IMG/VR virus record: IMGVR_UViG_3300031920_000053
Coordinates: 1-46,259 of that record
Strand: one strand, 5' to 3'
DNA length: 46,259 nt
From: a virus
Shown here: positions 19,532 through 43,301 of the stretch, in pieces
How the letters are laid out: every line of letters starts with the position of its first letter
Position numbering within the stretch: position 1 is the first letter of the stretch
Position numbers and translations under genes: made by a program
Notes under the pieces: model-generated
Databases searched by the model: none
Told to the model about the DNA's origin: nothing
What the model saw: only the letters and a program-made list of their open reading frames with translations

Positions 19532-22500
19532 TGGCAGATTCCCTCCCTACAATAACAGAAAATCCAAATGAAATAAAGCTTAACTCAATGAGGCAAATCG
19601 GGCATTCCATGTCAAAGGATAGTGGGGGCTCTATGATTGATTTGTCTGAAAAAAGTAATATTCCAGTACAAACACTATGGAATATGGACAATAGAGATAT
19701 TGCTTTAATAAAAGAACCTTCGTCTATTGAATGGAAAAAACCAGTAAAGGATTTAATATCTTCAAGTCCATTTGTTTCCGCAGCCGGATATGATAAACCA
19801 CATCAAATCACTACTGCAAACAATATTGCAGATATGTTTTATTCTCCATCAGAAACAGAACAGCGCATAAAAGATTCATTTTTTTATAAAGAATTAAACA
19901 CAGATGAAGTATTACAAATATATGGAAAAGAATTACAGCCAGAAAATCCGGCCAAAAGAAAAGAATTAATTGATGCCGGATATAAATATTATGGCAATTA
20001 TTATGTTGATCCACATGGAAGAAGGGTTTTTAAGCCATTGCTTGATGAATGGACAAGAGCAAAAAGTGCGCGAGATGTATCTTTAACTGCATTAACTGAT
20101 GAAAAATATATTGAATCACAAGAATATTTAGGCAAAGATGCAGAAAATAAATTTCTTGAATATAGAAAAGAAAATAAAAAACCAAAACCACTTCAACCAT
20201 TAGCTCCCATAGAGCTTGAAAGATTTGAAATTTTAAAACAGAAAATGGTTGATGCAAAAAAGATTTTTCAATTTATTTCATACGCAGATTCAGAAGGTGG
20301 TGGCCGAGGATATTTTGATGATAAAGATATGATGGAAAAAAGTCTTGATGATTTTACTAAAAAAACTGGTATTGATATGTCTGATATTCCATTAGATGCT
20401 TTTCAGAAATATGGCGTTACTGATTTTGAAATTTCAATAACCAATATGATGAATAATCTTATTCCGGGATTTGAAGCGTCAGAAAAGTTTTTTCCTGATG
20501 AACCCAGCAATGTTGTTAATCCATATACATTCGATGCTCAATCTCAATTTATAAGAAATGCTATTAGTTCTGAAATTGGAACAACATTCATGCGTGATGT
20601 TCAAACAGCAGGAGAAAAATCTTTGCCATTTGTTGTTTGGATGATGCTTAGTGGCGGAGCAGCGGCAATTGGGAAAAGATCGCTTTTGGGTTTTTTTAAA
20701 AATCCAGCAAAAATGAACAAAGCTGTTAGATTCTTAGTTGGAGCAACAGGAACAACCATAGGTGGAACTGCATTTTTTACACCCTTAGTTGTAAAGGATA
20801 TTCAAAACGCAAAAACATATAAAACTTTTGATGAAAATGGAAATATTATACTTGCTGACACAGAACTTTCTAATACTGAACTTGTGTTTAAGCATTATCT
20901 TTTAAATGCAACTGAATATGCTACAGAGTTGTCCGGTGGACTTCTTACTAAAATACCGGGAATAGGAAAATTATTTGGCAGAATTGGATCAAGAGCAGCT
21001 ATATCAAAAGGAATACTTGGAAAATTAATTAGAATTGGCAGAAGGGCTTCTGGAGCTGCTCAAATACAATCAATGCCTGCTGAAATAAGTGAAGAATATC
21101 TTGCACAATTTAGTAATTATACTCAAACAAAAATTGGAGAAATGACTGGACTTGATTTTCTTAAAAGCATAAATGTTCAAAACCCATTATTAACAGGTAG
21201 AAATGTTGGAGTAACTGCGGTATTAACTGCTGCAATGCAAGCTCCTCATATTCCTGCAAGAATATATGATACAATTCAAATTGGAAAATTCTTAAAAAAG
21301 AAAGCAACAATTAGAAATATTAGTGAAGAACTTGAAAATAATGAAGAATTTGCGGGTAATAGTCAGGTAGTTTCAAAGCAATATGTTGATAATATTAGTG
21401 GTGGTATGTCTATAATTGTTAATGCCCGTGATTTACAGTTTATGTTTAATGAAACAGACACTCCAGGGGTAACAGTAAAAGAAGCTCTTGGTCTTACAGA
21501 TATTGAATCTGATCTCTTAAATGAACAAGCTGAAAATAATGGTTCGATTAATATTGATGCCTCCAAGCTTTTGGTTGATAGTAAAAATAAAGAAGTAGTT
21601 GAAAAGGTATTGGATATTAGTCGGGACGTTATAGGCGGATATACTGAAACTGAAATAAAAAAAATGCAGAAAGAATCTAAATTTGTTGAAGATAAAAATA
21701 TTGAAAAAGAATTGACTGAAAGTGAAACAGCTTATCTTAACAAGCTGGATAGCTATACTGCATCATTAAAGGCTGGTGAGGATGGACTAAAGGCACAACA
21801 GGCGAAGTATGGCACGGCGCTTGTTGATTCAATGGCGCGTGTCTTTGCGGAACGAGCAGGCATTCAACCTATTGATATAATTAATAATCTTGAAATAAAT
21901 AATATTAGCTTTGAAGATTTTCAGAAAAAGTATATGAGCAGTATCCCTATAAAAGATGGAACAAAAAAATTAGGCGCAATTATTTCTGAAAAAAACTTTG
22001 AGATGATTGCTTTGTTTGAAGATTCTAAGCTTCCAACATTAGCGCATGAAACATTCCACTTCTTCAGAGATACAATGACACGGTTAAGAAATGATGGAGT
22101 TATTACCAATGAACAACTATTGGCAGACATTAAGGCTCTTGAGGAATTTGAAGATGGCGATATCGAAATTGGCGCAAAGGCATTTGAATTGTACTTAAAG
22201 GAAGGCAAAGTGCCAGTAGGAGCAAATAAGCGTATTGCCGGACTTTTTGCGGCGTTTAAGAAGTATCTATTGGCTTTCTACTCCTTCTTCGGTTCCAAAG
22301 CTTATTTTGCTGATATAAACATTAATCAGAATCTTCGTGAAGTATTTGACAGAATGCTTGTCAGCGATAAATATTCAATTGATTTAATGACTGATACAAA
22401 ATTGAACCAGCTTTTATCTGAACATAACTTACATGGCCTCCGAGTTTCTGACAAAAAAACATTTATCAAAAATTTACAGAAGCAGAAAAATGAATATTTT

Positions 22501-25500
22501 GAAAGCATTGACAATCAATTGGCAAAAGAATTACCAAAAGTAAAAACTGAATCAGGCAGAGAAGCAAATAAGATTATGGATTCAATGTCAGTTTATAATG
22601 TTTGGAAAACAATAAAGAAAAATGGCAGATTAAAATATTTAGATGTTCAATCAATGGGTATTCAGCAATCATTAATTGAGAATTTATTAAAAAAGAATGC
22701 GATAACAAGACCTCCGCGACAAAAGAAGTTTGCATTGCCTAAAGGAAAAGAAAGGGCTACTGCGTTTAATGAATGGTTATTTGTTAATAATGATATTGCT
22801 TGGGCTATGCTTGAAATGAAATTTGCATATCCAGATGGAGTAAGACCGGATCAATCTCTTGGAGTGCCAAAAAGTGAATATGGTTATTATATGTCAAATA
22901 AAGGCGCGCATAGTGATAGGATTTCAAGTGAAGTTTCTTCTGTGTTGAATAGAACTATATCTCCTCTTGAATTGACTGATGCGTTAAGGGATCAGAAATT
23001 AACAGTTCAGAAAAAAGCTTTTAATAAAACGCTTCTTGAAGAACAGCAGATGTATGAAAATCTTGCTAATGAAATTAATCGCGAAGAAGATGAAGGTCTT
23101 GAATCTGAAGCTGTAAGTATTATTGCAGGCGAACATGGATATAAGTCTGCGCGTGAAATGCTTTATGATCTTGAATCAAATCCGGTTCCGACAGTATATA
23201 AGGGTCAACTGATTAATTCAATGGTTAAAGAGTTTACTGATAACTTTATGCAATCAAGTTTTGTTGTTGATTCAACAAATGCCCTGAAGCGCATTGATGA
23301 AATGTCAACCTTGCTTTTGACTAAGGCAAAAGATTCTAAGCAGGGCGGAAAAAGATACAGACAAAGTTTGACAATATTGAAAAGTGAAATAAATTTAGAA
23401 ATTGATAATATGCCAGTATCAAAAATACTTGATTTAAAAAGACCGCTTGATTCTATAGAAAATAATAGTGCAAAGGCATTAAAACTTATCCAAGAAAAAA
23501 AATGGATTCAGTCTTTTGATTTAATCCAGCAAGTTAGACATGATATCGAACTGTTAAGGCAGAAACATAAACGAGCAGAACAGATAAATAAAAAAGTTGA
23601 ATCAATTAAAAAAACCGCTGCATATAATTCTCCGAATAATACCAAGAGTAGAATGTTTGGTGAAGCGTTACATTTTTATAAAAAGATTGCTTATGCTTAT
23701 AAATTATCTAATAAAATTGTAACCGCTGAAGATACTCAAAGCATGGATAGCTTCTTTGAAAGATTCAATAGCGACTACGCGCAGAATCAATTGCCAGGCG
23801 CGATGCTCGGAAGGGTGAGTTATAAAAATTTAACTTCAAAACAATTTAGTCAAGTAACAGATATTCTTGACTTCTTTAAGATAGTCGGAACTGAAGGCGT
23901 TGCTCTTGTTGAAGCACAAAAACAAAAAGAAGCAAAATCAGTTAGAGAAGGAATATTTAAAAAATTAAAGAATAGAAAAACTCAAGTCAGAACAAAATCG
24001 TTTGATGTTAAAGCAATAGGAGATACTGCTTCTGCATTATGGAATGATACCAATTATACCGCTAAGAATTTATTGACAATATGTCGATCATTAGATGGGA
24101 ATACTTATGCTTTAGGTAAGGGCACAAGAGGTGTTTTTGAAAATAATATATTTATTCCATTAAGTGATATGTCTAATTTTGAATTAGATCTATTAGATCA
24201 AGCAACAGTAACCGCTAAGGCTGGAATGAAATATTTGAATAAAATGGAAAGCATATTCACTCATAAATATATTCAGTCTTTGGATTTACCTAAAGTCCCT
24301 AAAATCTTGGTAGACATTGGAATAAGAGAATGGAATTTTCAGGCAATTTTAGCGGTTGCTTTAAATACTGGAACGCTTGATAATTACCAAAAACTTCAAG
24401 ATGGATTTGCTATAAAGAATCAGGCTGGTGAGATTGTTGGTTCTGAACTTGATTCAGTTGCCATAGATAAAATATTAACAGCATTGAATACGAATGAAGC
24501 ATGGGATGCAATTGAGGGATTATGGGATTCTTTTAGATATATCCTGCCTCATAAGAAAGCTGCTTATAAAGAATCAACATATACTGATTTGGAACTTATT
24601 CCTGAACGAACTTTTGAGGTTGATATTGTTGGCGAAGATGGAAATAAAACAAAAAGAATAATCAAGGGCGGTTACTATCCTGTCAAATATGATAATAGGA
24701 TTAATGGAGAATATGGTGAATTTATTCAAGAAACAAGAGGACCTAATACAGACGGCTTAATTCATAGTCCAAGAAGCAGTTCAACAAAAGAACGTGCGGA
24801 TCATACTGGCCGTCCAATAAAACTTGACGTAAATGTATTTCTCAGTGCATTGTCTGAAGATGTTCATAATATAGCATTTAGATCACTAAATCAAAAATTA
24901 AATAAAATTTATAATCCTGAAGTAAGAGGTGAAGTAAAACGAGTTCTTGGTGCTGGTTCAAATGCGTTTAATGCTTTGATTACAAATGTAACTAATCCTT
25001 CAGTTTTGGATAGCGGAAAATTTGAGAAGTTTTGGAATACTGCTGTAACAGTCAAGGCACTTTATGGGAATCTTAACACTATTGGAATGCAGTTTGCAAG
25101 TGCAACTCAAGGAATAACAGAGGTTGGCAGAGCAAATTATCTTAGGGCTGAGATAAACTTTTGGAGTAGCCCAAAAGATTCAATAAATTTTATAGTTTCT
25201 CTTTCTGCTTTTATGCGCGATAGATTTGCTGCTCCTGATGCTGATATAAGACAAAGAGCTGATAAGATATTGCGCGGTAAATCTAAAAAAATATATAATG
25301 AAGCAAGGGCTTTTGGATTCTTGGGAATTAGAATCGCTGACTTTGCAGTTGCCGCGCCGGTGTGGATGGCTCAATATAGCAAAAGTATGGCAGAACATGG
25401 AAGTCAAAAACAAGCAATATCTGAAGCGGATAGACTTATTTCAGGAACTCAAGGTAGTGCAAGAGGAATTGATAAAATATATGCTCAGCTACATCCTCAG

Positions 25501-26151
25501 TTGAAATATATTGTAAAATTTATTTCTGCTACAAGTGCAATACAAAATAGGTCTTGGGATACTTTGCAGGCAACAAGAGCTGGAACTATTTCTGGTTCTG
25601 ATTATGCTAAGTTTATAGTTGCTGAAGCATTAGCTCCTGCTGTTATGTCTGGAATAATAAGAGCTTTTGGAAGTGGCGATGTAATTGGATTAATTTTAGC
25701 TGCATTCTCTGGTGATGATGATGAATTTAAAAAGAAATTAAAATCTACGCTAAAATCTGCTGGAGTTGAGGTTTTGACTTTTGGAACTCAAGGAATCCCC
25801 GTTATTCGCGGTGCTGCTGATATGGGAATAAGGGCAGCTTTTGGAGAAAGAGTTTTTAGTCCAGTTGGGGCACCTATTGTTCAAGTTGCGGAAATGCCAT
25901 TTAATGCAATAAAAAAGGCTGTAAAATATAGTGCAAAGCAACTTTCAGAAGAAGAATCAAAAAGGAATAGTTTTTTATCTTCAGGTGATAATGATAATAA
26001 ACTTTTAACCGGAGCTGTTAGCGATGCTCTTGAGATTGGAGGAATAACTCTTGGTATTCCTTTAGTTACTGTAATAAAAAGATATAAAAGATTTTTGCAA
26101 AAAGCAGGAATAATTGAAGATAAAAAAAAGAAAAAGAATAGCTTTTTATAA
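19531..26151 (+). CDS. Giant gp16-like internal virion / ejection protein, 2206 aa, with an HExxH motif and several hydrophobic segments.
   Basis: The call rests on synteny. HETFH is encoded at 22045-22059. Hydrophobic stretches include FVVWMMLSGGAAAIG and VGATGTTIGGTAFFTPLVV. The tail is poly-Lys. Confidence 0.55.
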   Translation: MADSLPTITENPNEIKLNSMRQIGHSMSKDSGGSMIDLSEKSNIPVQTLWNMDNRDIALIKEPSSIEWKKPVKDLISSSPFVSAAGYDKPHQITTANNIADMFYSPSETEQRIKDSFFYKELNTDEVLQIYGKELQPENPAKRKELIDAGYKYYGNYYVDPHGRRVFKPLLDEWTRAKSARDVSLTALTDEKYIESQEYLGKDAENKFLEYRKENKKPKPLQPLAPIELERFEILKQKMVDAKKIFQFISYADSEGGGRGYFDDKDMMEKSLDDFTKKTGIDMSDIPLDAFQKYGVTDFEISITNMMNNLIPGFEASEKFFPDEPSNVVNPYTFDAQSQFIRNAISSEIGTTFMRDVQTAGEKSLPFVVWMMLSGGAAAIGKRSLLGFFKNPAKMNKAVRFLVGATGTTIGGTAFFTPLVVKDIQNAKTYKTFDENGNIILADTELSNTELVFKHYLLNATEYATELSGGLLTKIPGIGKLFGRIGSRAAISKGILGKLIRIGRRASGAAQIQSMPAEISEEYLAQFSNYTQTKIGEMTGLDFLKSINVQNPLLTGRNVGVTAVLTAAMQAPHIPARIYDTIQIGKFLKKKATIRNISEELENNEEFAGNSQVVSKQYVDNISGGMSIIVNARDLQFMFNETDTPGVTVKEALGLTDIESDLLNEQAENNGSINIDASKLLVDSKNKEVVEKVLDISRDVIGGYTETEIKKMQKESKFVEDKNIEKELTESETAYLNKLDSYTASLKAGEDGLKAQQAKYGTALVDSMARVFAERAGIQPIDIINNLEINNISFEDFQKKYMSSIPIKDGTKKLGAIISEKNFEMIALFEDSKLPTLAHETFHFFRDTMTRLRNDGVITNEQLLADIKALEEFEDGDIEIGAKAFELYLKEGKVPVGANKRIAGLFAAFKKYLLAFYSFFGSKAYFADININQNLREVFDRMLVSDKYSIDLMTDTKLNQLLSEHNLHGLRVSDKKTFIKNLQKQKNEYFESIDNQLAKELPKVKTESGREANKIMDSMSVYNVWKTIKKNGRLKYLDVQSMGIQQSLIENLLKKNAITRPPRQKKFALPKGKERATAFNEWLFVNNDIAWAMLEMKFAYPDGVRPDQSLGVPKSEYGYYMSNKGAHSDRISSEVSSVLNRTISPLELTDALRDQKLTVQKKAFNKTLLEEQQMYENLANEINREEDEGLESEAVSIIAGEHGYKSAREMLYDLESNPVPTVYKGQLINSMVKEFTDNFMQSSFVVDSTNALKRIDEMSTLLLTKAKDSKQGGKRYRQSLTILKSEINLEIDNMPVSKILDLKRPLDSIENNSAKALKLIQEKKWIQSFDLIQQVRHDIELLRQKHKRAEQINKKVESIKKTAAYNSPNNTKSRMFGEALHFYKKIAYAYKLSNKIVTAEDTQSMDSFFERFNSDYAQNQLPGAMLGRVSYKNLTSKQFSQVTDILDFFKIVGTEGVALVEAQKQKEAKSVREGIFKKLKNRKTQVRTKSFDVKAIGDTASALWNDTNYTAKNLLTICRSLDGNTYALGKGTRGVFENNIFIPLSDMSNFELDLLDQATVTAKAGMKYLNKMESIFTHKYIQSLDLPKVPKILVDIGIREWNFQAILAVALNTGTLDNYQKLQDGFAIKNQAGEIVGSELDSVAIDKILTALNTNEAWDAIEGLWDSFRYILPHKKAAYKESTYTDLELIPERTFEVDIVGEDGNKTKRIIKGGYYPVKYDNRINGEYGEFIQETRGPNTDGLIHSPRSSSTKERADHTGRPIKLDVNVFLSALSEDVHNIAFRSLNQKLNKIYNPEVRGEVKRVLGAGSNAFNALITNVTNPSVLDSGKFEKFWNTAVTVKALYGNLNTIGMQFASATQGITEVGRANYLRAEINFWSSPKDSINFIVSLSAFMRDRFAAPDADIRQRADKILRGKSKKIYNEARAFGFLGIRIADFAVAAPVWMAQYSKSMAEHGSQKQAISEADRLISGTQGSARGIDKIYAQLHPQLKYIVKFISATSAIQNRSWDTLQATRAGTISGSDYAKFIVAEALAPAVMSGIIRAFGSGDVIGLILAAFSGDDDEFKKKLKSTLKSAGVEVLTFGTQGIPVIRGAADMGIRAAFGERVFSPVGAPIVQVAEMPFNAIKKAVKYSAKQLSEEESKRNSFLSSGDNDNKLLTGAVSDALEIGGITLGIPLVTVIKRYKRFLQKAGIIEDKKKKKNSFL

Positions 26152-30346: not shown

Positions 30347-30763
30347 ATGAAACTAAAGCTAACAGTAGAAGATGTAATACCAATGCTTGACAGGATCAAG
30401 AAGTCGGGTCAAATCGTTCCTGCATGGTTTTGGTTATTAACTCCAACGGAAATAGCTCATTGCTACAATGGGGTTGGATCTAATCTTACATGGAAGCCAA
30501 TAAGAAAAGCCTTGAGTTTCATATTCCGTTGGGCTAAAAGGTCAGTTGTTATTCACGATTGTATATGGACGTATATTGAAAGGTTTGAATTAACCGAAGA
30601 AGATTTTTATGAGTCTAACGAGGCTTTAAAAACAAATGCTCGAATAGAGCTTGCGGAGATCACGTCAAAGTGGAATCCTCTCTATTGGTATCGTTATCGT
30701 AATGCTTGGCTTGCTCAACAAGCCTGTGATTTGCTTGGTAAACAGGCTTGGAATACAAATTAA
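30347..30763 (+). CDS. Hypothetical protein, 138 aa, with YNGVG...HD motifs (DUF1353-like or PLA2-like, uncertain).
   Basis: It contains CYNGVGSNLTWKP, then 18 residues later VVIHDCIW, then ...AWLAQQACDLLGKQAW. It sits directly before a TM protein and a lipoprotein. Confidence 0.35.
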   Translation: MKLKLTVEDVIPMLDRIKKSGQIVPAWFWLLTPTEIAHCYNGVGSNLTWKPIRKALSFIFRWAKRSVVIHDCIWTYIERFELTEEDFYESNEALKTNARIELAEITSKWNPLYWYRYRNAWLAQQACDLLGKQAWNTN

Positions 30764-30773
30764 GGAGAGGGTC

Positions 30774-31085
30774 GTGGATAAAGTAGAGGCAACTAGAATA
30801 ATAGTAGAGGGTATGACCGTAGATCAAATGGCTGTAACGGCTTTTGCGACACTTGCTCTTTTTGTTTTTATTATTAGCATAGTAATAAGTATAACAGTAT
30901 TTTTAAACAAGCAGCAGATGTTGAGAATAAACTCATTGCTTGAGCCATTGAAAGATATTCCAGTAATACTTGCTACGCTTCAGGCTAAAGTTAAAAGCGG
31001 CATTGAACTTGAGAAGATGATTGACGATAAGATAAAATACCATTCCGTAAACTGCCCATTGCTAAACAAAAAAAAAGGAGATTGA
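30774..31085 (+). CDS. Single-pass membrane protein, 103 aa (i-spanin or holin candidate), with a GTG start.
   Basis: GTG 30774 lies 6 nt after AGGAG. The TM segment is AVTAFATLALFVFIISIVISITVFL. The track ORF start at 30651 would overlap the previous gene by 113 nt. Confidence 0.45.
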   Translation: MDKVEATRIIVEGMTVDQMAVTAFATLALFVFIISIVISITVFLNKQQMLRINSLLEPLKDIPVILATLQAKVKSGIELEKMIDDKIKYHSVNCPLLNKKKGD

Positions 31086-31086
31086 G

Positions 31087-31332
31087 ATGAGGTATTTAAT
31101 TTCACTGGTTGCCATGCTTATGCTGTGTGGTTGCGCCGGGTATAAGATAAACGAAGACGGTTCTGTTGACTCATACGGCTTTCTAAGGACTTTGACGGTT
31201 CACAAAAAGTTTAAGGGCGATAATTTGGTTGAGATCACTATCTCTACTGACAGCCGTTTTAAAGACATTGCAATAGGTCTTAACGAGATAGTTGACTCTG
31301 CTGCGAACACCGGAGCAAAGCTTATTCCTTAG
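31087..31332 (+). CDS. Lipoprotein, 81 aa (o-spanin candidate).
   Basis: The signal peptide has a lipobox, MRYLISLVAMLMLCGC|AG. The gene follows the TM protein after 1 nt. It lacks the proline richness typical of o-spanins. Confidence 0.45.
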   Translation: MRYLISLVAMLMLCGCAGYKINEDGSVDSYGFLRTLTVHKKFKGDNLVEITISTDSRFKDIAIGLNEIVDSAANTGAKLIP

Positions 31333-31521: not shown

Positions 31522-32019
31522 TTACTCCTTTATGTTATACCATTGGTTATATGCAAATTCACCAAAATATTTATTTTCAGCTTGCTTCCGGGCGTTTATA
31601 GCATCTTCTTTGTTTTCATAATATCCAAGATGCATACCTTTTTTATTGACAACTATCTGGGAATGCCACCTTTGCGACCTTTTATCCCAACAGACACCAG
31701 TTACTCCGCTGGTATTATTTGAAAGCCTTCTGTGATTCATCATATTTTGACTTTTTGTGCAAACTCTCAAATTGCATTTTCTATTATCAAGTGTATTATG
31801 ATTGATGTGGTCTGTATTCATGCCCTTTGGTGTGTTCATTATTTGGTGGTGCATTCTTATAGTTTTTTTCTTTCCGCTCGAACGGTCATTGCGGCTAACA
31901 TAAAAACTTTTCGCGATCTTACTGTAGTGTGCACACCATTTGTATTTTATTAGTTCTTGGTAATCTTCATCATCAACGATAGCAAACTGACCTTGTGTTA
32001 GTGATATTCTTTTAGACAT
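31522..32019 (-). mobile_element. Free-standing HNH endonuclease with an AP2-like DNA-binding domain, 165 aa (homing endonuclease type).
   Basis: It contains DHINHNTLDNRKCNLRVCT..QN, followed by SGVTGVCWDKRSQRWHSQIVVNKKGMHLGYYENKEDAINARKQAE. The start was moved to ATG 32019, which has a GGAGAAAG SD. Confidence 0.8.
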
Positions 32020-32028
32020 AACTTTCTC

Positions 32029-32107
32029 CAAAATAAAAAGCCCATTGAAATTGGTTGCACATAAAAATAGAGCCATTAGGCAAATTCTTATCCAAATCAA
32101 AGGGCTT
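32029..32107 (-). terminator. Long imperfect hairpin followed by a T-rich tract. It is a possible terminator or the boundary of the HNH insertion.
   Basis: On the minus strand, AAGCCCTTTGATTTGG...CCAATTTCAATGGGCTT is followed by TTTTATTTT. The loop is large, so this is weak as an intrinsic terminator. Confidence 0.3.
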
Positions 32108-35630: not shown

Positions 35631-37862
35631 TTAGCCCTCCTGTTTAATTACTAAAGATTTCTTAACGTCAAAACAACCTGCATTTTTTAGTCTTGTTCGC
35701 ACGGCTGTATTGCCTATATTTAATTCTTTCATCATGTCAGCAACGGTTACGTTGTTACCCATACCGCGTTCACTAATCATTTCCCATGCGACTATACATT
35801 CATCATTTTTGTTTTGTCTAATATTATCAGCTATAGCGACTTTCTTTTCGCGAGAGGGTTCTTCGCCGTCAGCAAGGCAATCTTTTAAGAATTCAGTATC
35901 GTCTATCTGATGTATTGGATATTTAAAATAGCAATTCTTTGGTGGAAAGTTTGGAAATTCTCTAAGCGTTCCCTCGATTCTCCATCCGCTTGCTTGCTCT
36001 GCTTTCTTTGTTGCTTCTTGAATAATGTTTTCTAGTTTCTCATGCTTGTAATTGACTTGTATATGTTCAAGTAGCTTCTTCGATACAGTCGTATAGTCAG
36101 GCATGATTGAATCTCGCCAATTTTTACTTTTGATGTCCATATCTAAGCATACTGCTTCACATATCCATTGGTTAATCATTTGCTCGCGCTGTGTTTCGCT
36201 TATTAATAATTCGATAAAGTCAAGTGAAGCGTCAGGATCGCGCAGAAGAACTCCAGAACCACTTGACCTATCCATAGAGTTTTTAGATCCTTGACTTCCT
36301 TTTGAGTGATGATGGCAATATATAATTGAAGTATTAAGTTCAGTACATATTTTATCAAAGTGATTCAAAAATTTGCTCATTTGTTCAGCAGAGTTCTCGT
36401 CGCCTGTAATAACTTTGTATATTGGATCAATTATTATTGCTGAATAATTTCCTTTTGCAGCACGACGAATTAAACGTGGTGTCATTTTATCAAGAGTCTT
36501 TGACTTTCCTCGAAGATTCCATATAGTAATTTTATTTTTTCTTGTTCTTTCTATTTTTAATTCTTCATATACGTCTTTATATCTATTGATGAATGATGCT
36601 CCATCTAATTCTAAATTGACATATAATACATCCCCTTGTTCGCATTGCCAACCCATCCATTCTTTGCCTTCTCTTATTGCTATTGCAAGTTGAATTAAAG
36701 CAAGTGATTTTCCTGCTTTAGACGGGCCTGCGACCATCATCTTATGTCCGTGTCTTAATATGCCATGTACTTGTTCGTCTGCTAGTGGTGGAGGATCTTT
36801 TAATAAATCATCAAGATCTTCAAATTCTGGCATATCATCATTCTGTTCCGCTATCCAGTCTTTCCAGCTACTCCACGACTCTTTTCCAATGCTGGTATCA
36901 ATGAGTCGCTGTTTGTTTCCATTACGTTCTACACCTGGTAAGCGTGATAATCTGGAAGGGTTACGGTTCTGCCTGTCAATAGATAGCCCATTTTCTTTAC
37001 AGACTTGATAAAGGAAGTCAACACGTTGCTGATATTCTTTGTAGTTATCTGCATGAATTTTAACAATGGCATGAAGTGATTTATTTCCGCTGGTAACTAA
37101 GGCGATAATCGGAAGCTCCAGCTCTTTGTAGATAGCGTATTGCTTGTCAATGCTGAGGTCGTCTGATTCAACTAAGGCGTAGCGTAAGTCGGTTACGTTC
37201 TTATCATATACACCTTGGCCATCTAGCGGATTGAATCTTATCCATGCGCCTACTTCTTTAGTATAGTCCCCGATAGCATCTTCAATCTCTTTGCCTTTGT
37301 TTAAGTCCTTGAGATACTGCTTGACTTGAAAGGCGTATGCTCCCCTGTCTGGAAGTTGTTTTCTGTTTCCTTCATTGTCTGGATCAGAAGCAAAAGTCTT
37401 TGTAACTATTCCGACATAATCATCCGGCTCGAATAGAGTTTTCAAATAAGTCTTAAGGTCGTCCATGCCGTTCCAATCTTTCGGAGCTTCGGGAACTCTG
37501 TCTTCATGCAGCCACTCTTTACGGATAATTTTATTTTCACTTCCTATTCCATCATTAGAGATAGTATCATCCCATTTAAGTTCGCGGTGTTCGGTCTCTA
37601 TTGCTGGAGGAGTACCGCCATGCTTCTTGCAGATTTCGACTACTGAACCGACTCCAACTCCATCACGACCAAAGCTTTTCCACTTTTTTCCGCAATCATT
37701 GGCGCGGTAACGGCTATCAGATTTACTCCACGAATCCCATGCATCAACTGTTCCGCCATGATTCTTGACAGCCATGCCGACATTAAGCCAATCTTCATAC
37801 GAGAGAGATGCAGGGCTGATTTCGTTTAAGCAGGAAATTATATAGTCCAAATCGTTATTCAT
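35631..37862 (-). CDS. Primase-helicase, 743 aa. It has a PriCT-like N-terminus, an AEP prim-pol domain, a RecA-like (AAA_25/RepA-type) ATPase and a C-terminal HTH.
   Basis: The AEP motifs are LVESDD and SGNKSLHAIV. Walker A is GPSKAGKS. The C-terminus is VADMMKELNIGNTAVRTRLKNAG. Confidence 0.8.
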   Translation of the reverse strand: MNNDLDYIISCLNEISPASLSYEDWLNVGMAVKNHGGTVDAWDSWSKSDSRYRANDCGKKWKSFGRDGVGVGSVVEICKKHGGTPPAIETEHRELKWDDTISNDGIGSENKIIRKEWLHEDRVPEAPKDWNGMDDLKTYLKTLFEPDDYVGIVTKTFASDPDNEGNRKQLPDRGAYAFQVKQYLKDLNKGKEIEDAIGDYTKEVGAWIRFNPLDGQGVYDKNVTDLRYALVESDDLSIDKQYAIYKELELPIIALVTSGNKSLHAIVKIHADNYKEYQQRVDFLYQVCKENGLSIDRQNRNPSRLSRLPGVERNGNKQRLIDTSIGKESWSSWKDWIAEQNDDMPEFEDLDDLLKDPPPLADEQVHGILRHGHKMMVAGPSKAGKSLALIQLAIAIREGKEWMGWQCEQGDVLYVNLELDGASFINRYKDVYEELKIERTRKNKITIWNLRGKSKTLDKMTPRLIRRAAKGNYSAIIIDPIYKVITGDENSAEQMSKFLNHFDKICTELNTSIIYCHHHSKGSQGSKNSMDRSSGSGVLLRDPDASLDFIELLISETQREQMINQWICEAVCLDMDIKSKNWRDSIMPDYTTVSKKLLEHIQVNYKHEKLENIIQEATKKAEQASGWRIEGTLREFPNFPPKNCYFKYPIHQIDDTEFLKDCLADGEEPSREKKVAIADNIRQNKNDECIVAWEMISERGMGNNVTVADMMKELNIGNTAVRTRLKNAGCFDVKKSLVIKQEG

Positions 37863-38007
37863 TTTTGCTCCTGTCTGGTTTACTTACCTTGTAGGTTTTG
37901 CGCTCGGCAAATTCCGCCTTCTTTCCTTTGTTCCAGTCCGCAACCGGGCGAAAATAGCCGACTATCCTTGAATACACCTCTGTAACTTGTCCGCATTTAG
38001 GCATCAT
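37855..38007 (-). CDS. Stand-alone NrdD C-terminal (glycyl-radical loop) mini-protein, 50 aa.
   Basis: MMPKCGQVTEVYSRIVGYFRPVADWNKGKKAEFAERKTY matches the class III RNR C-terminus (CPxCG...R[IV]xGY...N.GK..E...R). A GGAG lies 6 nt upstream of the ATG ATG at 38007. The gene overlaps both neighbours. The track ORF extends to 38079. Confidence 0.7.
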   Translation of the reverse strand: MMPKCGQVTEVYSRIVGYFRPVADWNKGKKAEFAERKTYKVSKPDRSKNE

Positions 38008-38554
38008 TTTGACTCCATAAAGCTTTTCCTCTTGTATTTCTTGGAATATAGCTGGAGTGCATCTTTCTTGCCATATCATCTAATGCCGATTCCCATATCT
38101 TTCCACCAACTGAATTTGGATAATAAGGACAATGCTCATTAGTTATTTCTTGTTTTGCGTTATCGACTTCTTCATTGGTTACTTCTTCTTGCGTGTTGAT
38201 ATATTCATTCCAGTGATTCCATATAAGCTGATAGCAACGTTCGGTCGTTTTTGTTTCATCTTCTGATATTTCTTTTACTTCTGTTTCAGCAAAAGCTAAC
38301 ACATACCAAGGTGGTACAACTTTATTGCAATCGTCTTTTGTTATTGCGCTTTGGAAGATAAATTTTGCTTTTGTTATGTCGTTTTCTGGATCAAAAAATT
38401 CATCTTCAATTAAGATTATTTCGTATATCCCTGTGTTCCTAAAGAGAAATGCCTTACCGCAGAATGTACCCATAAACAACGTTAGCTTTTCTGCGTCCAT
38501 TCCATGCGTTAATTTCTTCCAATCCCTCCTTGCTTGCTGTAGTGTTGTTTTCAT
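37997..38554 (-). CDS. Hypothetical protein, 185 aa.
   Basis: Track ORF with AAGGTGA upstream. Confidence 0.6.
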   Translation of the reverse strand: MKTTLQQARRDWKKLTHGMDAEKLTLFMGTFCGKAFLFRNTGIYEIILIEDEFFDPENDITKAKFIFQSAITKDDCNKVVPPWYVLAFAETEVKEISEDETKTTERCYQLIWNHWNEYINTQEEVTNEEVDNAKQEITNEHCPYYPNSVGGKIWESALDDMARKMHSSYIPRNTRGKALWSQNDA

Positions 38555-39234: not shown

Positions 39235-39585
39235 TCATTCTCCTTTGGTTGATATTGCTTTTGATATTTTAGCTAATTGTTCTTCGGATAATTTTAGTTG
39301 ACACATGCCCGATTCTCTAAAACTATGCAGATACCAGCTTTCAAAGATGTTTTCTTTCATTGGTTCTGCGTTCTTTCCGGCTTCGTATAGCTCTTTTATT
39401 TTTTCCTTTGTAGTTTTGCGAATTGAAACGAATACTTGTGCTCTGATCTTTCCTAATATAACTTGGCAATCAATTCCGTCAAATTCTATTTCGTAATTTC
39501 TATTGCCTAACATAATAAATGAGTTGACTATCTTAAACTCTCCGCTAATTATTCTTTCGGCAATGATGTTGTCTATTGTTTTCAA
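39235..39585 (-). CDS. Hypothetical protein, 116 aa, with a TTG start as given in the track.
   Basis: An AAGGAGAGG lies 4 nt upstream of the TTG. The start is uncertain. Confidence 0.5.
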   Translation of the reverse strand: MKTIDNIIAERIISGEFKIVNSFIMLGNRNYEIEFDGIDCQVILGKIRAQVFVSIRKTTKEKIKELYEAGKNAEPMKENIFESWYLHSFRESGMCQLKLSEEQLAKISKAISTKGE

Positions 39586-39803
39586 GTTGCCTCTCCTTGT
39601 TTATGGTATTTTTTCCATTTTACTTTTGGCAATGGAGTTCTAATATGTGCTTTGTTATCTTCTGGATTACATTCTTTAAACTGAATGTCATTTAAAATAT
39701 CATTAGGCTCATTAATTTTTTCAATAATATATTTAATTTTTTCTTGATCGACTTTATGAAAAATGCAATATATCCAGCTATAAATATTTCTAAATAATCT
39801 CAT
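39582..39803 (-). CDS. Hypothetical protein, 73 aa.
   Basis: The start was moved to the ATG at 39803, preceded by AAAGGAGAAG, which lies 10 nt after the helicase stop. Confidence 0.5.
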   Translation of the reverse strand: MRLFRNIYSWIYCIFHKVDQEKIKYIIEKINEPNDILNDIQFKECNPEDNKAHIRTPLPKVKWKKYHKQGEAT

Positions 39804-39813
39804 AACTTCTCCT

Positions 39814-41400
39814 TTACTTTGGTTTATAAGTTTCTGCATCTACTCCGTTTGGAACATTCCATTTATTCATGGCTATCCGAGCAATCATATTCTTGCCTTG
39901 ATCGAATGTCCATTGTCCTACGTTTTGGAATCCTTTTTGCTCAAGCTTCCTGATTTGTAGTGGTGTACTCAATCCGCTTTCTCTCCTTTTTTTAATAGTT
40001 CCAATTATAGTTGAAGCGTGTCCTTGACATGTTACTGATAACGGATTGATTCCATTATTCTCTATGTAAGAGAGTTGCGCGTCGCTTGCTGGTATCTGCT
40101 CTCGTAAATTCATTGCATCTGGTTCGTAGTCCTTAGCTTTATCTTCTATGCTGTGCTCGTATTGGAGAACGTCAACAAGCTTGTTCTTCTTATCCTTCTG
40201 CGCCTCAAGCTCTTTGCGTAATGATTCCTCACGTTCCTCGATAGCATTATTTTCAATAGGTGCAAGGTCTGATAGTAAATCAATGTCAACGCTGGTATTC
40301 TCAGCAAGTATCTCAGAGACACGTCCGACTATATCATCGTTCTCACATATTAGATGTGCCGGACGGCAAAGGTCGTGTTTATTTGTATGCCACAAGAAGT
40401 CCAATATCAACAAGTGGTCTTTGCCTGGATGTATACGAGTTCCGCGCCCAATCATTTGCGTGTACAACATTCTAATCTTAGTCGGTCTAAGCACAATTAT
40501 GCAATCTATTGACGGGCAATTATAACCTTCAGTATACAGCATAGAATTGCATAATACTTTATATTTATCATTCTCAAAATCTTTTCTTTTCTGATGGCGG
40601 TCAGGACTTTCGCCGTTTATTTCTACCGCTGGCAATCCTTTCTTGTTTAGTATCTCACAAAACTTTTGGCTAGTAGCTATTAGAGGAAGGAATACCATTG
40701 TCTTACGGTCCGAACAATGAGTAACCATTTCGTTAGCTATTTCTTCAAGATATGGGTCAAGGGCAGAACCCAATGCGGCGGCTTGATAATCTCCGGCTTG
40801 AGTCTTGACACCTGAAAGTTCTATTTTTAGTGGTAATGTTCTTGCCTTAATTGGAACAAGAAATCCGTCTTTAATTGCTTGGAGTAGGCTGTATTGATAA
40901 GCGATAGTATCGAATACTTCGCCGAGATTTCGTTTATCACCTCTATCTGCCGTCGCTGTAACTCCTAAAATTTTTGCATCTGGAAAGTAATTTAATATTC
41001 TGCGGTATGACTGAGCCAGAATTCTATGAGATTCATCGATTATGATATGTGTAAAATAATCTGGTGTGAATTTGTCCAGCCTTTTTTCTGACTGCAAAGA
41101 CTGAACAGATCCAGTAACTACATTAAACCAACTACCAATACAGCAGCTATCAGCTTTTTCCAGAGCGCACTTGAGTCCAGTAACGGCTTCAATTTCATCT
41201 GATGCCTGCTGGAGAAGTTCTTCTCTATGTGCAAGGACAAGGACTCTTGCGCTTTCACCGACAACCGTTTCGATTATCTTGGCGAATAAAAACGTCTTGC
41301 CTGTGCCTGTGGGAAGCACAGCAAGTGTTGCCTGTGTTCCCAACGCCCACGTTTCAAGGACTGCCTTAATAGCTTCTGTCTGGTAGTATCTTGGTTTCAT
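39814..41400 (-). CDS. SF2 (DEAD/DExH) helicase, 528 aa.
   Basis: It starts MKPRYYQTEAI, has Walker A PTGTGKT and motif II IIDESHR. The start is the ATG at 41400, with AGGA upstream. The 597-aa track ORF is an N-terminal over-extension. Confidence 0.8.
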   Translation of the reverse strand: MKPRYYQTEAIKAVLETWALGTQATLAVLPTGTGKTFLFAKIIETVVGESARVLVLAHREELLQQASDEIEAVTGLKCALEKADSCCIGSWFNVVTGSVQSLQSEKRLDKFTPDYFTHIIIDESHRILAQSYRRILNYFPDAKILGVTATADRGDKRNLGEVFDTIAYQYSLLQAIKDGFLVPIKARTLPLKIELSGVKTQAGDYQAAALGSALDPYLEEIANEMVTHCSDRKTMVFLPLIATSQKFCEILNKKGLPAVEINGESPDRHQKRKDFENDKYKVLCNSMLYTEGYNCPSIDCIIVLRPTKIRMLYTQMIGRGTRIHPGKDHLLILDFLWHTNKHDLCRPAHLICENDDIVGRVSEILAENTSVDIDLLSDLAPIENNAIEEREESLRKELEAQKDKKNKLVDVLQYEHSIEDKAKDYEPDAMNLREQIPASDAQLSYIENNGINPLSVTCQGHASTIIGTIKKRRESGLSTPLQIRKLEQKGFQNVGQWTFDQGKNMIARIAMNKWNVPNGVDAETYKPK

Positions 41401-41401
41401 T

Positions 41402-41566
41402 TTAGTCCTGTTTTTGGAATTCGTTATTAAATGACACGAATACAGATGAAGTAGAATCATTTTCATAAAAAGCATAAATCCATCCACCAGCAACCCTTGT
41501 AATAAAAACATTGCTTGATGTGTTTGCTTCTTCATGCAGTTCCATATTGTAAATATTTTTTTCCAT
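41402..41566 (-). CDS. Small protein, 54 aa, with a VAGGWIY motif.
   Basis: A GGAGAAG lies 5 nt upstream of the ATG. Translation is MEKNIYNMELHEEANTSSNVFITRVAGGWIYAFYENDSTSSVFVSFNNEFQKQD. The stop sits just before the helicase ATG. Confidence 0.55.
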   Translation of the reverse strand: MEKNIYNMELHEEANTSSNVFITRVAGGWIYAFYENDSTSSVFVSFNNEFQKQD

Positions 41567-41575
41567 TTTACTTCT

Positions 41576-41603
41576 CCAAAACTGCAGGGGAGACTAGCTC
41601 CCC
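41576..41603 (-). terminator. Hairpin after the DUF669 gene (weak terminator or attenuator).
   Basis: On the minus strand, GGGGAG / ctagt / CTCCCC is followed by TGCAGTTTT. The T run is only 4 nt and is offset from the stem. Confidence 0.3.
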
Positions 41604-41609
41604 ACATTG

Positions 41610-42089
41610 TTATTGTTTAGCCCAACCAGCTTTTGCTGGAGCTTCTTCTTCTTTTGGCGGAAATGTAGTATCGACGGGATCGAGGAATTCAACCTGATTT
41701 GATTCCATTTCTGTGCCATCGTCCTTTTTCCATTTGCGGGTAGTAACCTTGCATTGTCCAGTTGATGCCGGAACGTCATTCCATTTCATTACTAGCGGTT
41801 CGCCGTGTTTCTTTTGACCGATTGCTCGGAAGAATTTACACAGTAACCATTCCATCTTACTGTGAAGCTTCAGGTTTTCGGTTACTTCTCCGGCTGGCTC
41901 TCCGTCTTTAATCAGGCGCAAAGTTACAGTCGCTTGTGGACATGGATCGATTTTTCCTCCGCCGTTGTATTTGCCACGTTCAACTTTGAGAACTTCAAAG
42001 TCATATTCTCCGGTAGGGATAAGAACAAACGCGTCTTCTTTTTCGATTTTGTCATCCCACTCTAATACTTTACCTTTGTCTTCACTCAT
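41610..42089 (-). CDS. DUF669-family protein, 159 aa (SSB-like partner of Sak4-type recombinases).
   Basis: It contains AFVLIPTGEYDFEVLKVERGK...ATVTLRL and sits directly downstream of the AAA_24 ATPase. Confidence 0.65.
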   Translation of the reverse strand: MSEDKGKVLEWDDKIEKEDAFVLIPTGEYDFEVLKVERGKYNGGGKIDPCPQATVTLRLIKDGEPAGEVTENLKLHSKMEWLLCKFFRAIGQKKHGEPLVMKWNDVPASTGQCKVTTRKWKKDDGTEMESNQVEFLDPVDTTFPPKEEEAPAKAGWAKQ

Positions 42090-42092
42090 TTT

Positions 42093-43301
42093 TTACTCTC
42101 CTTTGATTGACTGGACTACATCAGCCCAATTTGTTGTTAATATTTTGATAAGGCTTTCAGGGTACTCAGAATAAGGACCCGAACCCATCTCGTTTGATTC
42201 GACTTCCGCTTGTAGCTGTTCTGGAGTAATTCCAGCTTCTTCAAACAACTCGTCAAGCGGCGAAGCGTTTGGTTCAACTGCTTCACCTTCTTCGATTCTG
42301 CCTTCTTCTTTCATTACTTCATCCATTTCAAGAACGTTTACGTCCCAACTACCTACAAGCTGTGTCAGGGTTGCTTTATTGAATAACTTGTATGACGTTC
42401 CGGCCGGACATACGCCCTTGCTTACTATGAATGCTTCTACGGCTGCCGGAGTTATTCCAGCCATTTCCATTAGCGTCTCAAGCTCTTGGAGTTTGCCCGT
42501 TGGCTTTGTTTCTTTTTTTACTTTTTCGGTAACTTCAGCTTTTTTCATTGCTTCTTTTGCTGGAGTAGCTTGCTTCTTGGCTGCTCCTTTCATCTGCCCG
42601 AATATGTGAGCTATAGATTTTATTTCCATTGGCAACTCGTCTTTCAGTCCGAAGCGATTCTTTGCATCCCATGACGCATGATGAGTAGTATACAAAGTGC
42701 GCTTCTGTCCGTGAGCTTTTGCTTTTTTCATCTCGTCTGTTTCAACAAGAGTTTTGTAGTTCGCAAGAAGCAAAGCATCAGGCCATTCTTTTAAAATAGC
42801 ATTTCCTTTTTTTGACAGCTTCATTGTGTAGCGGTCATAGCTTCCCTGCTCTTGCGGTTGTTCAAATTTCTTCAATTCTGAATGAGCCAAAAGAACAACA
42901 TCCATTGGTAATTCATTCAGCTTATCAAGAAACTTAGCCCATGTTTCTTCAACCATAGTATAGCCTTTGCCATAGCCAAAGTCTTCAATGCTATTGATTT
43001 TATCTCCAGCAGAATCAATTATATGGCGAAGTATAAGCTTTTCCATCCAGTCGGCAGTATCAATAACAAGAGTTTTATATCCAACTTGATCTGCTTTTAG
43101 GTTTGCGATTAATTGCAATATTTCCGAATGTGTCTTAGGGCTGACGCGATCAACTTTAAGTTGATTAGTGCCGCCCTCAACATCTACAAATAAGGGTTTT
43201 GGAAGTTTACTGGCAAGAGTTGATTTGCCAATTCCCTCAACGCCATATATTACAGCCTTGGTGTATGAAGGCTGTATTCCTGTTGTTATTTTGAGGCCCA
43301 T
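42093..43301 (-). CDS. AAA_24 (Sak4-like, RecA-related) ATPase with an extended C-terminal region, 402 aa.
   Basis: It contains KAVIYGVEGIGKSTLASKLPKPLFVDVEGGT and LVIDT. Confidence 0.75.
   Translation of the reverse strand: MGLKITTGIQPSYTKAVIYGVEGIGKSTLASKLPKPLFVDVEGGTNQLKVDRVSPKTHSEILQLIANLKADQVGYKTLVIDTADWMEKLILRHIIDSAGDKINSIEDFGYGKGYTMVEETWAKFLDKLNELPMDVVLLAHSELKKFEQPQEQGSYDRYTMKLSKKGNAILKEWPDALLLANYKTLVETDEMKKAKAHGQKRTLYTTHHASWDAKNRFGLKDELPMEIKSIAHIFGQMKGAAKKQATPAKEAMKKAEVTEKVKKETKPTGKLQELETLMEMAGITPAAVEAFIVSKGVCPAGTSYKLFNKATLTQLVGSWDVNVLEMDEVMKEEGRIEEGEAVEPNASPLDELFEEAGITPEQLQAEVESNEMGSGPYSEYPESLIKILTTNWADVVQSIKGE

Follow-up and report, generated by a model that had tools for sequence, protein, structure and literature searches.

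Small stand-alone proteins that act as "spare parts" of glycyl radical enzymes, whose backbone oxygen cleaves at the radical glycine, are known only for pyruvate formate-lyase (PFL), and a June 2026 review calls the existence of such parts for other glycyl radical enzymes undetermined (reviews of 2021 and June 2026). Here we describe a mini-gene for a stand-alone glycyl-radical C-terminus of NrdD, the anaerobic (class III) ribonucleotide reductase (RNR), in a phage genome of 46,259 nt (IMG/VR record IMGVR_UViG_3300031920_000053, positions 1 to 46,259, hereafter the window). A first-pass annotation made from the sequence alone had proposed this gene and named as its precedent the PFL spare parts YfiD/GrcA of E. 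coli and Y06I of phage T4, and the two reviews bear out that precedent. Like these proteins, the product of the mini-gene is a small C-terminal glycyl-radical module of a large enzyme and would presumably be activated by the cognate radical S-adenosylmethionine (SAM) activase and act in trans; Y06I is phage-encoded as well. Unlike them, it is homologous to NrdD and not to PFL, it has about 45–50 residues instead of about 127 and no disordered N-terminal half, its partner is probably a tail-less large subunit and not an oxygen-cleaved enzyme, and it is known from genes alone. With moderate confidence, we propose that it belongs to an undescribed two-subunit class III RNR with an exchangeable radical subunit of 41–70 residues, and that hundreds of uncultured phages carry only that subunit, which would sustain host synthesis of deoxynucleoside triphosphates (dNTPs).

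RNRs whose catalytic polypeptide is encoded in two genes have been described in class II (NrdJa/NrdJb of Pseudomonas aeruginosa) and class I (NrdA-a/NrdA-b of Aeromonas phage Aeh1), and their products assemble into active enzymes. The two-piece NrdD reported below resembles these in being divided between two genes. In the class I and II splits, however, the radical-carrying element is not split off, whereas the class III enzyme is broken after the third zinc ligand at most loci and carries the radical on the small piece. The nrdD of Aeromonas phage phiAS4 is reported as broken, without explanation, into three pieces relative to an intact gene that is nearly identical. Phages such as T4 and Clostridium phage phiCTP1 carry nrdD at full length, either with nrdG or alone; these proteins belong to the same family, their C-termini align with the mini-protein, and they share its presumed purpose, the supply of dNTPs in anoxia. 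Such phages bring the whole enzyme, whereas the window phage encodes no activase and just about 6% of NrdD. Autonomous glycyl-radical modules and split RNRs are known as kinds, while the separate gene for a class III radical subunit and its capture by phages are new. In the literature searched there was no description of a phage mini-gene of this type, of a class III radical subunit as a separate gene, or of a class III split of this kind.

The 50-aa product of the mini-gene (MMPKCGQVTEVYSRIVGYFRPVADWNKGKKAEFAERKTYKVSKPDRSKNE) matched Pfam NRDD (PF13597) with 44.8 bits (E 9e-12; domain cut-off 26.2 bits), its residues 3–39 falling on profile positions 525–562 of 562. NCBIfam TIGR02487 gave 40.6 bits over positions 544–580 of 581, far below the whole-protein cut-off of 326.35 bits, and five NCBIfam NrdD equivalogs were matched solely in their last ~40 positions, again far under their whole-protein cut-offs. 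NRDD was the sole Pfam match at E <= 1, with no match to Gly_radical, the C-terminal glycyl-radical domain of PFL, and the NrdD of Thermotoga maritima (E 0.006) was the sole PDB sequence found in a profile search. When full-length NrdDs were searched against the window by tblastn, the sole match lay at 37882..38013 (E 1e-13), and elsewhere nothing was better than E 0.18. The NrdD barrel (ten-stranded alpha/beta, with the catalytic cysteine on a finger loop) was not found in the window by BLASTP, by a purpose-built hidden Markov model (HMM) or by tblastn, and therefore no decayed nrdD surrounds the mini-gene. NrdG was likewise not found in the window by BLASTP or a purpose-built HMM; the two models were built from 10 NrdD and 12 NrdG sequences. 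These results agree with the proposal that the gene encodes only the C-terminal end of NrdD, here the last ~38 NRDD positions, without a catalytic barrel or activase.

The mini-protein contains the C-terminal motif S-R-[IV]-x-G-Y followed by RP..WN.GK..E...R. Residues E10, S13, R14, G17, Y18, R20, P21, W25, N26, G28, K29, E32, F33 and R36 were invariant in the family alignment, and the radical Gly was kept in all 60 unique phage mini-proteins (100%). In the alignment to full-length NrdD C-termini (..CPxCGxxTEVYSRIVGY..), the Met before P-K-C-G took the place of the Cys that opens the CPxCG knuckle, in agreement with the first reading of the sequence. The four-ligand zinc site of NrdD was incomplete in the mini-protein, with Met at the position of the third ligand and only the last ligand, Cys5, present.

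The mini-gene lies on the minus strand and has its own Shine–Dalgarno (SD) sequence (Table 1). The enclosing open reading frame (ORF), 38079..37855, would give 74 aa from its first ATG; this start was set aside, because homologues begin M-x-K-C and the extension lies inside the upstream 185-aa ORF in another frame. The 50-aa form from the ATG at 38007, or the 49-aa form, is the likely product because of these M-x-K-C starts and because the source record's own gene call (P0001) is 50 aa. The stop codon of the upstream ORF (TAA, 37999..37997) lies inside the mini-gene, an overlap of 11 nt, and the ATG of the primase-helicase at 37862 comes ahead of the mini-gene stop, an overlap of 8 nt; the GGAG and both overlaps were confirmed as they had first been described. 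A programmed frameshift or fusion with the upstream ORF was rejected, since that ORF has no similarity to NrdD. The mini-gene and its flanks were base-for-base identical in the independent assembly Logan SRR1971621. In that assembly (L174, 2856–3008), the gene caller skipped the mini-gene, so that nothing was annotated between the 185-aa ORF and the primase gene. An exact-sequence look-up of P0001 matched no record.

Relatives of the mini-protein were numerous. A word-indexed search of 5.8 billion proteins yielded 23, all of 40–70 aa, and a profile search of 1.84 billion cluster representatives (50% identity) gave 5226 matches, the best 150 of which were all short (48–313 aa). After removal of those already in the query set, 149 of these best representatives remained; the part before E-x-Y-S-R had no more than 12 residues in 79 and an extension of 13–45 residues in 48, and 7 were contig-end fragments of full-length NrdD. 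In IMG/VR, 455 stretches encoded relatives. The best 80 of these loci comprised 69 mini-ORFs with the same N-terminus and 11 full-length phage NrdDs, and neither an NrdD barrel nor NrdG was found within 6 kb of the mini-gene loci. Among 50,697 GenBank phage records, a near-identity DNA search of the locus gave no match and tblastn with the mini-protein gave seven, of which the best (MT835493.1) was a full-length NrdD and the rest were annotated as full-length, so no mini-gene was detected in these records. PHROGs, NCBIfam and PADLOC had no dedicated family for the mini-proteins.

Selection was analyzed on 35 core codons in a set of 77 unique mini-genes, phage-borne ones and chromosomal small-subunit genes together. 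The mean proportion of synonymous differences (pS) was 0.86, with synonymous sites saturated, compared to 0.21 for nonsynonymous differences (pN), and the median ratio of nonsynonymous to synonymous substitution rates (dN/dS) was 0.19 over the 269 unsaturated pairs. The mini-genes are under purifying selection. The neighbours of phage mini-genes encoded AAA_24/Sak4 proteins, DUF669/SSB proteins, helicases, RusA, exonucleases, ParB-like proteins and Gam, and no conserved partner outside replication was found among the neighbours surveyed. In the viral contigs L044 and L045, the gene order of the window (Sak4, 159-aa protein, helicase, mini-gene, primase) was kept, although identity of the flanking proteins was just 44–47%. 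The large family, the selection and the absence of a decayed barrel all uphold the claim of the first-pass annotation that the gene is not debris.

Several members of the family deviated from the common form. P0016 (59 aa, on a 1.1-kb contig) is stand-alone and has a complete four-Cys ribbon (CEKC..CPEC) ahead of the radical loop, so that in some members of the family the knuckle is not split. In the top-scoring representatives P0024, P0025 and P0026, the radical loop is duplicated internally (e.g. ..SRVCGYFRPVSNWNKGRVCGYFRPVSNWNKGKK..); these duplications are probably repeat assembly artefacts, but they could be real. In-frame fusions of the mini-domain to other proteins were recurrent (P0009, P0032, P0034, P0042, P0047, P0053, P0059, P0131, L013, L040, L144). 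In these, a conserved ..RK-x-[FY]-K-[VI] end is followed by a hydrophobic stretch with a lipobox (e.g. LLLLAGC) and then by unrelated mature domains, so that they look like lipoprotein signal peptides with a cytoplasmic extension of 40 aa. A Pfam search of the neighbours of the L144 fusion gave no pointer to the type of element. The free-standing form makes up most of the family.

Many homologues were chromosomal and sited between an nrdD without the radical tail and nrdG, in bacteria and archaea of several phyla. This two-piece arrangement consists of nrdD-large (662–706 aa where complete), a small gene (41–70 aa) and nrdG. The seven loci from the genome scan (Table 1), with taxon names as in their records, came from Lentisphaeria CP091727.1 and UBA7640, Victivallales, Victivallaceae, Margulisiibacteriota, Desulfuromonadaceae and a Bilamarchaeaceae archaeon. 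At most loci the first knuckle (C-x-x-H-G) is part of the large subunit, which ends soon after the third ligand (..ECP[LHY] and a short tail), and the small gene begins M-x-K-C-G, with starts such as MKCG (L006), MACN (L008), MAKCG (L091, L112) and MPKCG (L175, L178). Between the large and the small gene there is either a spacer with an SD, at most 111 nt long, or a 4-nt overlap, and the small gene overlaps nrdG in several operons (L006, L170). With the fourth zinc ligand thus placed on the small subunit, a zinc bridge between the two chains is suggested.

The break point varied at three loci. In L002 (9890–10075), the whole CPAC knuckle is in the large subunit and both break ends carry charged extensions (..KEEEQAKIVFEMNELKEMLEMTK* and MERSEIIVKLGELEAKLQGVKG..), which look amphipathic and might pair with each other. 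The large subunit of L092 ends ..KCNH.. and its small subunit begins MAKKEAVACG, while in L170 the Cys of the small subunit stands four residues ahead of Tyr (PCEVYSR). In the Lentisphaeria metagenome-assembled genome CP091727.1 (L091, 7990–8546), the small gene is present three times in tandem between nrdD-large and nrdG, with a period of 206 bp and 98% matches. The nrdD-large of this long-read assembly is in three frames, and the frame breaks are probably sequencing errors. An assembly or frameshift artefact was rejected as the origin of the two-piece NrdD, because the break recurs across phyla and in independent samples and the spacers carry SD signals; the intact flanking genes likewise argue against pseudogenes. 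The large subunits also carry tail extensions of their own. The two-piece NrdD therefore exists as a natural gene architecture, and an active enzyme is predicted from it.

The phage mini-proteins resembled these small subunits. Their N-termini (MMPKCG.. in the window) coincide with the usual break point of two-piece NrdD, and they share residues that are less frequent in full-length C-termini: Phe after G-Y in 86% of phage mini-proteins and 90% of split small subunits compared to 16% of full-length C-termini, N20 in 73% and 60% compared to 28%, and K23 in 65% and 70% compared to 22%. With HMMs built without any phage sequence, 52 of 60 phage mini-proteins scored higher against the split-small model than against the full-length model (mean +4.5 bits). 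The window protein scored 85.6 bits against 81.3, a small margin of +4.3. Its nearest located relatives were the chromosomal small subunits P0004 and P0003 (31 of 39 residues identical), with which it has in common the MPKCGQ start and PVADWNKGKK. The genes for P0004 and P0003 lie between nrdG and an nrdD-large ending ..HSECPLEVEEALKVIG, a tail that matches the Victivallales locus L112, and the guanine plus cytosine (GC) content of their contigs was 0.40–0.44, compared to 0.38 for the window. All prophage-type mini-genes recovered from genomes were in Lentisphaeria or Victivallales assemblies, and the complete chromosome CP091727.1 carries a separate mini-gene (L144) elsewhere than its two-piece nrdD with three tandem small genes. 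The mini-gene of the window is not located between nrdD-large and nrdG, and with neither beside it the gene is a phage-borne homologue and not a member of such an operon.

We consider it somewhat better than an even chance that the phage gene is a copy of the trans-acting glycyl-radical small subunit of a two-piece class III RNR, which would be activated by host NrdG and docked in the host large subunit. The peptide would be produced together with the replication genes, and host NrdG, a radical SAM enzyme, would take a hydrogen atom from Gly17. The radical hairpin would then enter the barrel of the NrdD large subunit, itself encoded without a tail in such hosts, and Cys5 would probably complete a zinc site whose other three ligands lie at the end of that subunit. 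The assembled enzyme would reduce ribonucleoside triphosphates to dNTPs for phage DNA synthesis, so that class III RNR activity may be raised or maintained. Oxygen cleavage in a two-piece enzyme would destroy only the peptide of ~45 residues, and resupply of the radical tail by the phage could keep dNTP synthesis going during infection while taking up about 150 nt. The three tandem copies of the small gene in CP091727.1 fit a high demand for a consumable subunit. A productive role is favoured because the radical Gly and the residues of the active enzyme are strictly kept, the gene is placed among replication genes, and the phages have no RNR of their own.

Several points weigh against this small-subunit reading. 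NrdG activation, docking, the zinc bridge, the benefit to the phage and the activity of the two-piece enzyme are all deduced from sequence, and compatibility is assumed for small subunits of phage and host whose cores share only ~80% identity. The affinity of the phage mini-proteins to the split subunits concerns about 35 residues and is modest at +4.5 bits; in leave-one-out controls, 8 of 11 split small subunits and 52 of 67 full-length sequences were correctly classed. An AlphaFold2 (AF2) model of the isolated peptide, with a hairpin (E10–13/E18–21), G17 in the turn and a helix at 29–34, had low confidence (predicted local distance difference test 62.5), and a Foldseek search with it against PDB gave no meaningful match. 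The fusions to lipoprotein signals are unexplained by a small-subunit model. Primases from phages of Bacillota were the nearest to the primase-helicase of the window, at about 47%, and one-piece NrdD was present in the Clostridia-class genomes, few in number, that were sampled. Replication modules are exchanged between phages.

The nearest primases and the one-piece NrdD of the Clostridia genomes would suit a host with one-piece NrdD, in which an NrdG-activated phage peptide replaces the tail of the oxygen-cleaved enzyme, as in the PFL model that the first-pass annotation had proposed. That idea was right in kind, since a radical module acting in trans is also what we propose, but repair of a cleaved one-piece NrdD is less supported than a two-piece small subunit and seems unlikely. 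The PFL precedent includes a phage-encoded example, the peptide covers both sides of the radical glycine, and full-length NrdD C-termini are about 75% identical to the phage mini-proteins. The nearest located relatives, however, are small subunits of two-piece enzymes, the phage mini-proteins bear the split-type signature, and their N-terminus falls on the natural break point. A cleaved one-piece NrdD would also keep its own N-terminal half of the hairpin and its fourth zinc ligand, which an incoming peptide would have to displace. The lipoprotein fusions, found in several clusters, would be better accommodated if the radical tail served another partner outside RNR or formed a cytoplasmic extension tied to membrane or lipoprotein biology; this is rather unlikely, given that most members, including that of the window, are free-standing, that no other partner is conserved beside the gene, and that the sequence constraints are those of NrdD.

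The peptide might instead harm the host enzyme, titrating NrdG or blocking the NrdD barrel and shutting down host class III RNR for takeover or superinfection exclusion. A free glycine loop could compete for NrdG, a competitive mimic would also need a conserved loop, and in a phage without its own RNR any effect falls on the host enzyme. Such a phage nevertheless depends on host dNTPs and carries the gene among its replication genes; all 60 phage mini-proteins keep the radical Gly and all residues of the active enzyme, where one would expect selection on a poison to allow, or even promote, loss of the Gly, and the family has genuine chromosomal small subunits as close relatives. A decoy or inhibitor is improbable on these grounds. 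Full-length nrdD, with or without nrdG, at 11 of the 80 best viral loci could also point to a decaying remnant of such a gene, or the ORF could have arisen by chance. This is scarcely conceivable and already contradicted by the results: nothing is left of the barrel in the window, the gene is preceded by an SD of its own and overlaps the genes on either side, mini-genes with the same N-terminus occupy 69 of the 80 loci, the dN/dS is low, synteny is kept while the flanks have diverged to 44–47% identity, and a second assembly has the identical sequence.

Table 1. Features of the mini-gene locus and the window, and positions of two-piece nrdD loci and fusions. ATG, start codon; TM, transmembrane.
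Feature	Record or locus	Position	Strand	Remarks
Mini-gene, stand-alone NrdD glycyl-radical tail	Window	37855..38007	-	50 aa; 49 aa if ATG at 38004 is used
Shine–Dalgarno GGAG	Window	38013..38016	-	5 nt ahead of first ATG, 8 nt ahead of second
Cys5 codon	Window	37993..37995	-	Aligned to last Cys of CPxCG zinc knuckle (full-length C-termini, split systems)
Radical loop S13-R-I-V-G17-Y18	Window	37954..37971	-	Gly17 codon GGC 37957..37959
Conserved post-glycine segment F19..Y39	Window	37891..37953	-	Invariant R20 P21 W25 N26 G28 K29 E32 F33 R36
Upstream 185-aa ORF	Window	37997..38554	-	No family match (Pfam, NCBIfam, PHROGs, PADLOC)
Primase-helicase (PriCT_2 + AAA_25)	Window	35631..37862	-	Downstream of mini-gene; family matches
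SF2 helicase, 159-aa protein, Sak4-like annealing protein	Window	39814..43301	-	Rest of replication/recombination module
Spanin-like pair	Window	30651..31332	+	TM protein 30651..31085 and 81-aa lipoprotein 31087..31332 (MRYLISLVAMLMLCGC...), downstream of tail genes
Two-piece loci	L002-L005	L002 7899-11028		P0023 on 8 contigs, several samples
Two-piece loci	L006/L007	L006 7992-10835		P0012, two samples
Two-piece locus	L008	7850-10964		P0011
Two-piece locus	L170			P0017; NCBI assembly
Two-piece loci	L175-L178			P0003/P0004 small subunits among them; metagenome contigs
Seven two-piece loci from genome scan	L091, L092, L112, L114, L131, L132, L158			Metagenome-assembled genomes
Mini-lipoprotein fusions	L013; L040; L144	L013 5794-6585; L040 5986-6510; L144 8001-8468		In-frame

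The window is a phage genome. Its plus strand encodes a large terminase, a major head protein, tail proteins and a 565-aa protein that matches a PHROG annotated as head-tail adaptor, and its minus strand encodes a replication/recombination module with a Sak4-like protein, a helicase, the primase-helicase, YopX and RusA. No tRNA genes were found in the window, and a PADLOC scan of the mini-gene and its neighbours gave no link to a defence system. The spanin-like pair had no family match and was called from its sequence features. Because the TM protein and the lipoprotein look like an i-/o-spanin pair, they suggest a diderm host, such as a member of the Victivallales, in contrast to the Bacillota affinity of the primase-helicase. 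A free-standing gene for an endonuclease with HNH_3 and AP2 domains (31522–32100, minus strand) separates the lysis genes from the replication module. A 2206-aa protein of the tail region (19531–26151, plus strand) matched only phrog_9880, whose function is not annotated, and no Pfam domain. Within the replication module, an 85-aa ORF (39582–39839, minus strand) matched the first ~50 positions of Pfam GP7, a major capsid protein, with 36 bits and also gave a weak match to NsnC of PADLOC; this is an odd location for a capsid-like fragment.

In cyanophages, a phage-encoded psbA supplies the D1 protein, a damage-prone component with fast turnover, and keeps the host complex working during infection. 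The likeness of the mini-gene to psbA would be one of strategy only, as protein and pathway are unrelated. Genes of the present family are missed by gene callers, as in L174, or labelled as a complete "anaerobic ribonucleoside-triphosphate reductase", and both mislead metabolic inference. The family is a concrete candidate for the question posed by the June 2026 review, and its members are short enough for peptide synthesis. The two-piece NrdD would show the radical domain of a class III RNR working in trans, and it would let the radical-bearing peptide be made, labelled and exchanged apart from the barrel. If the small-subunit reading is true, spare-part or replaceable-radical systems would for the first time extend beyond PFL to another glycyl radical enzyme, and the mini-gene would be a minimal auxiliary metabolic gene of a new kind, in which about 150 nt supply a host enzyme of anaerobic, gut-type ecosystems with nothing but its consumable part.

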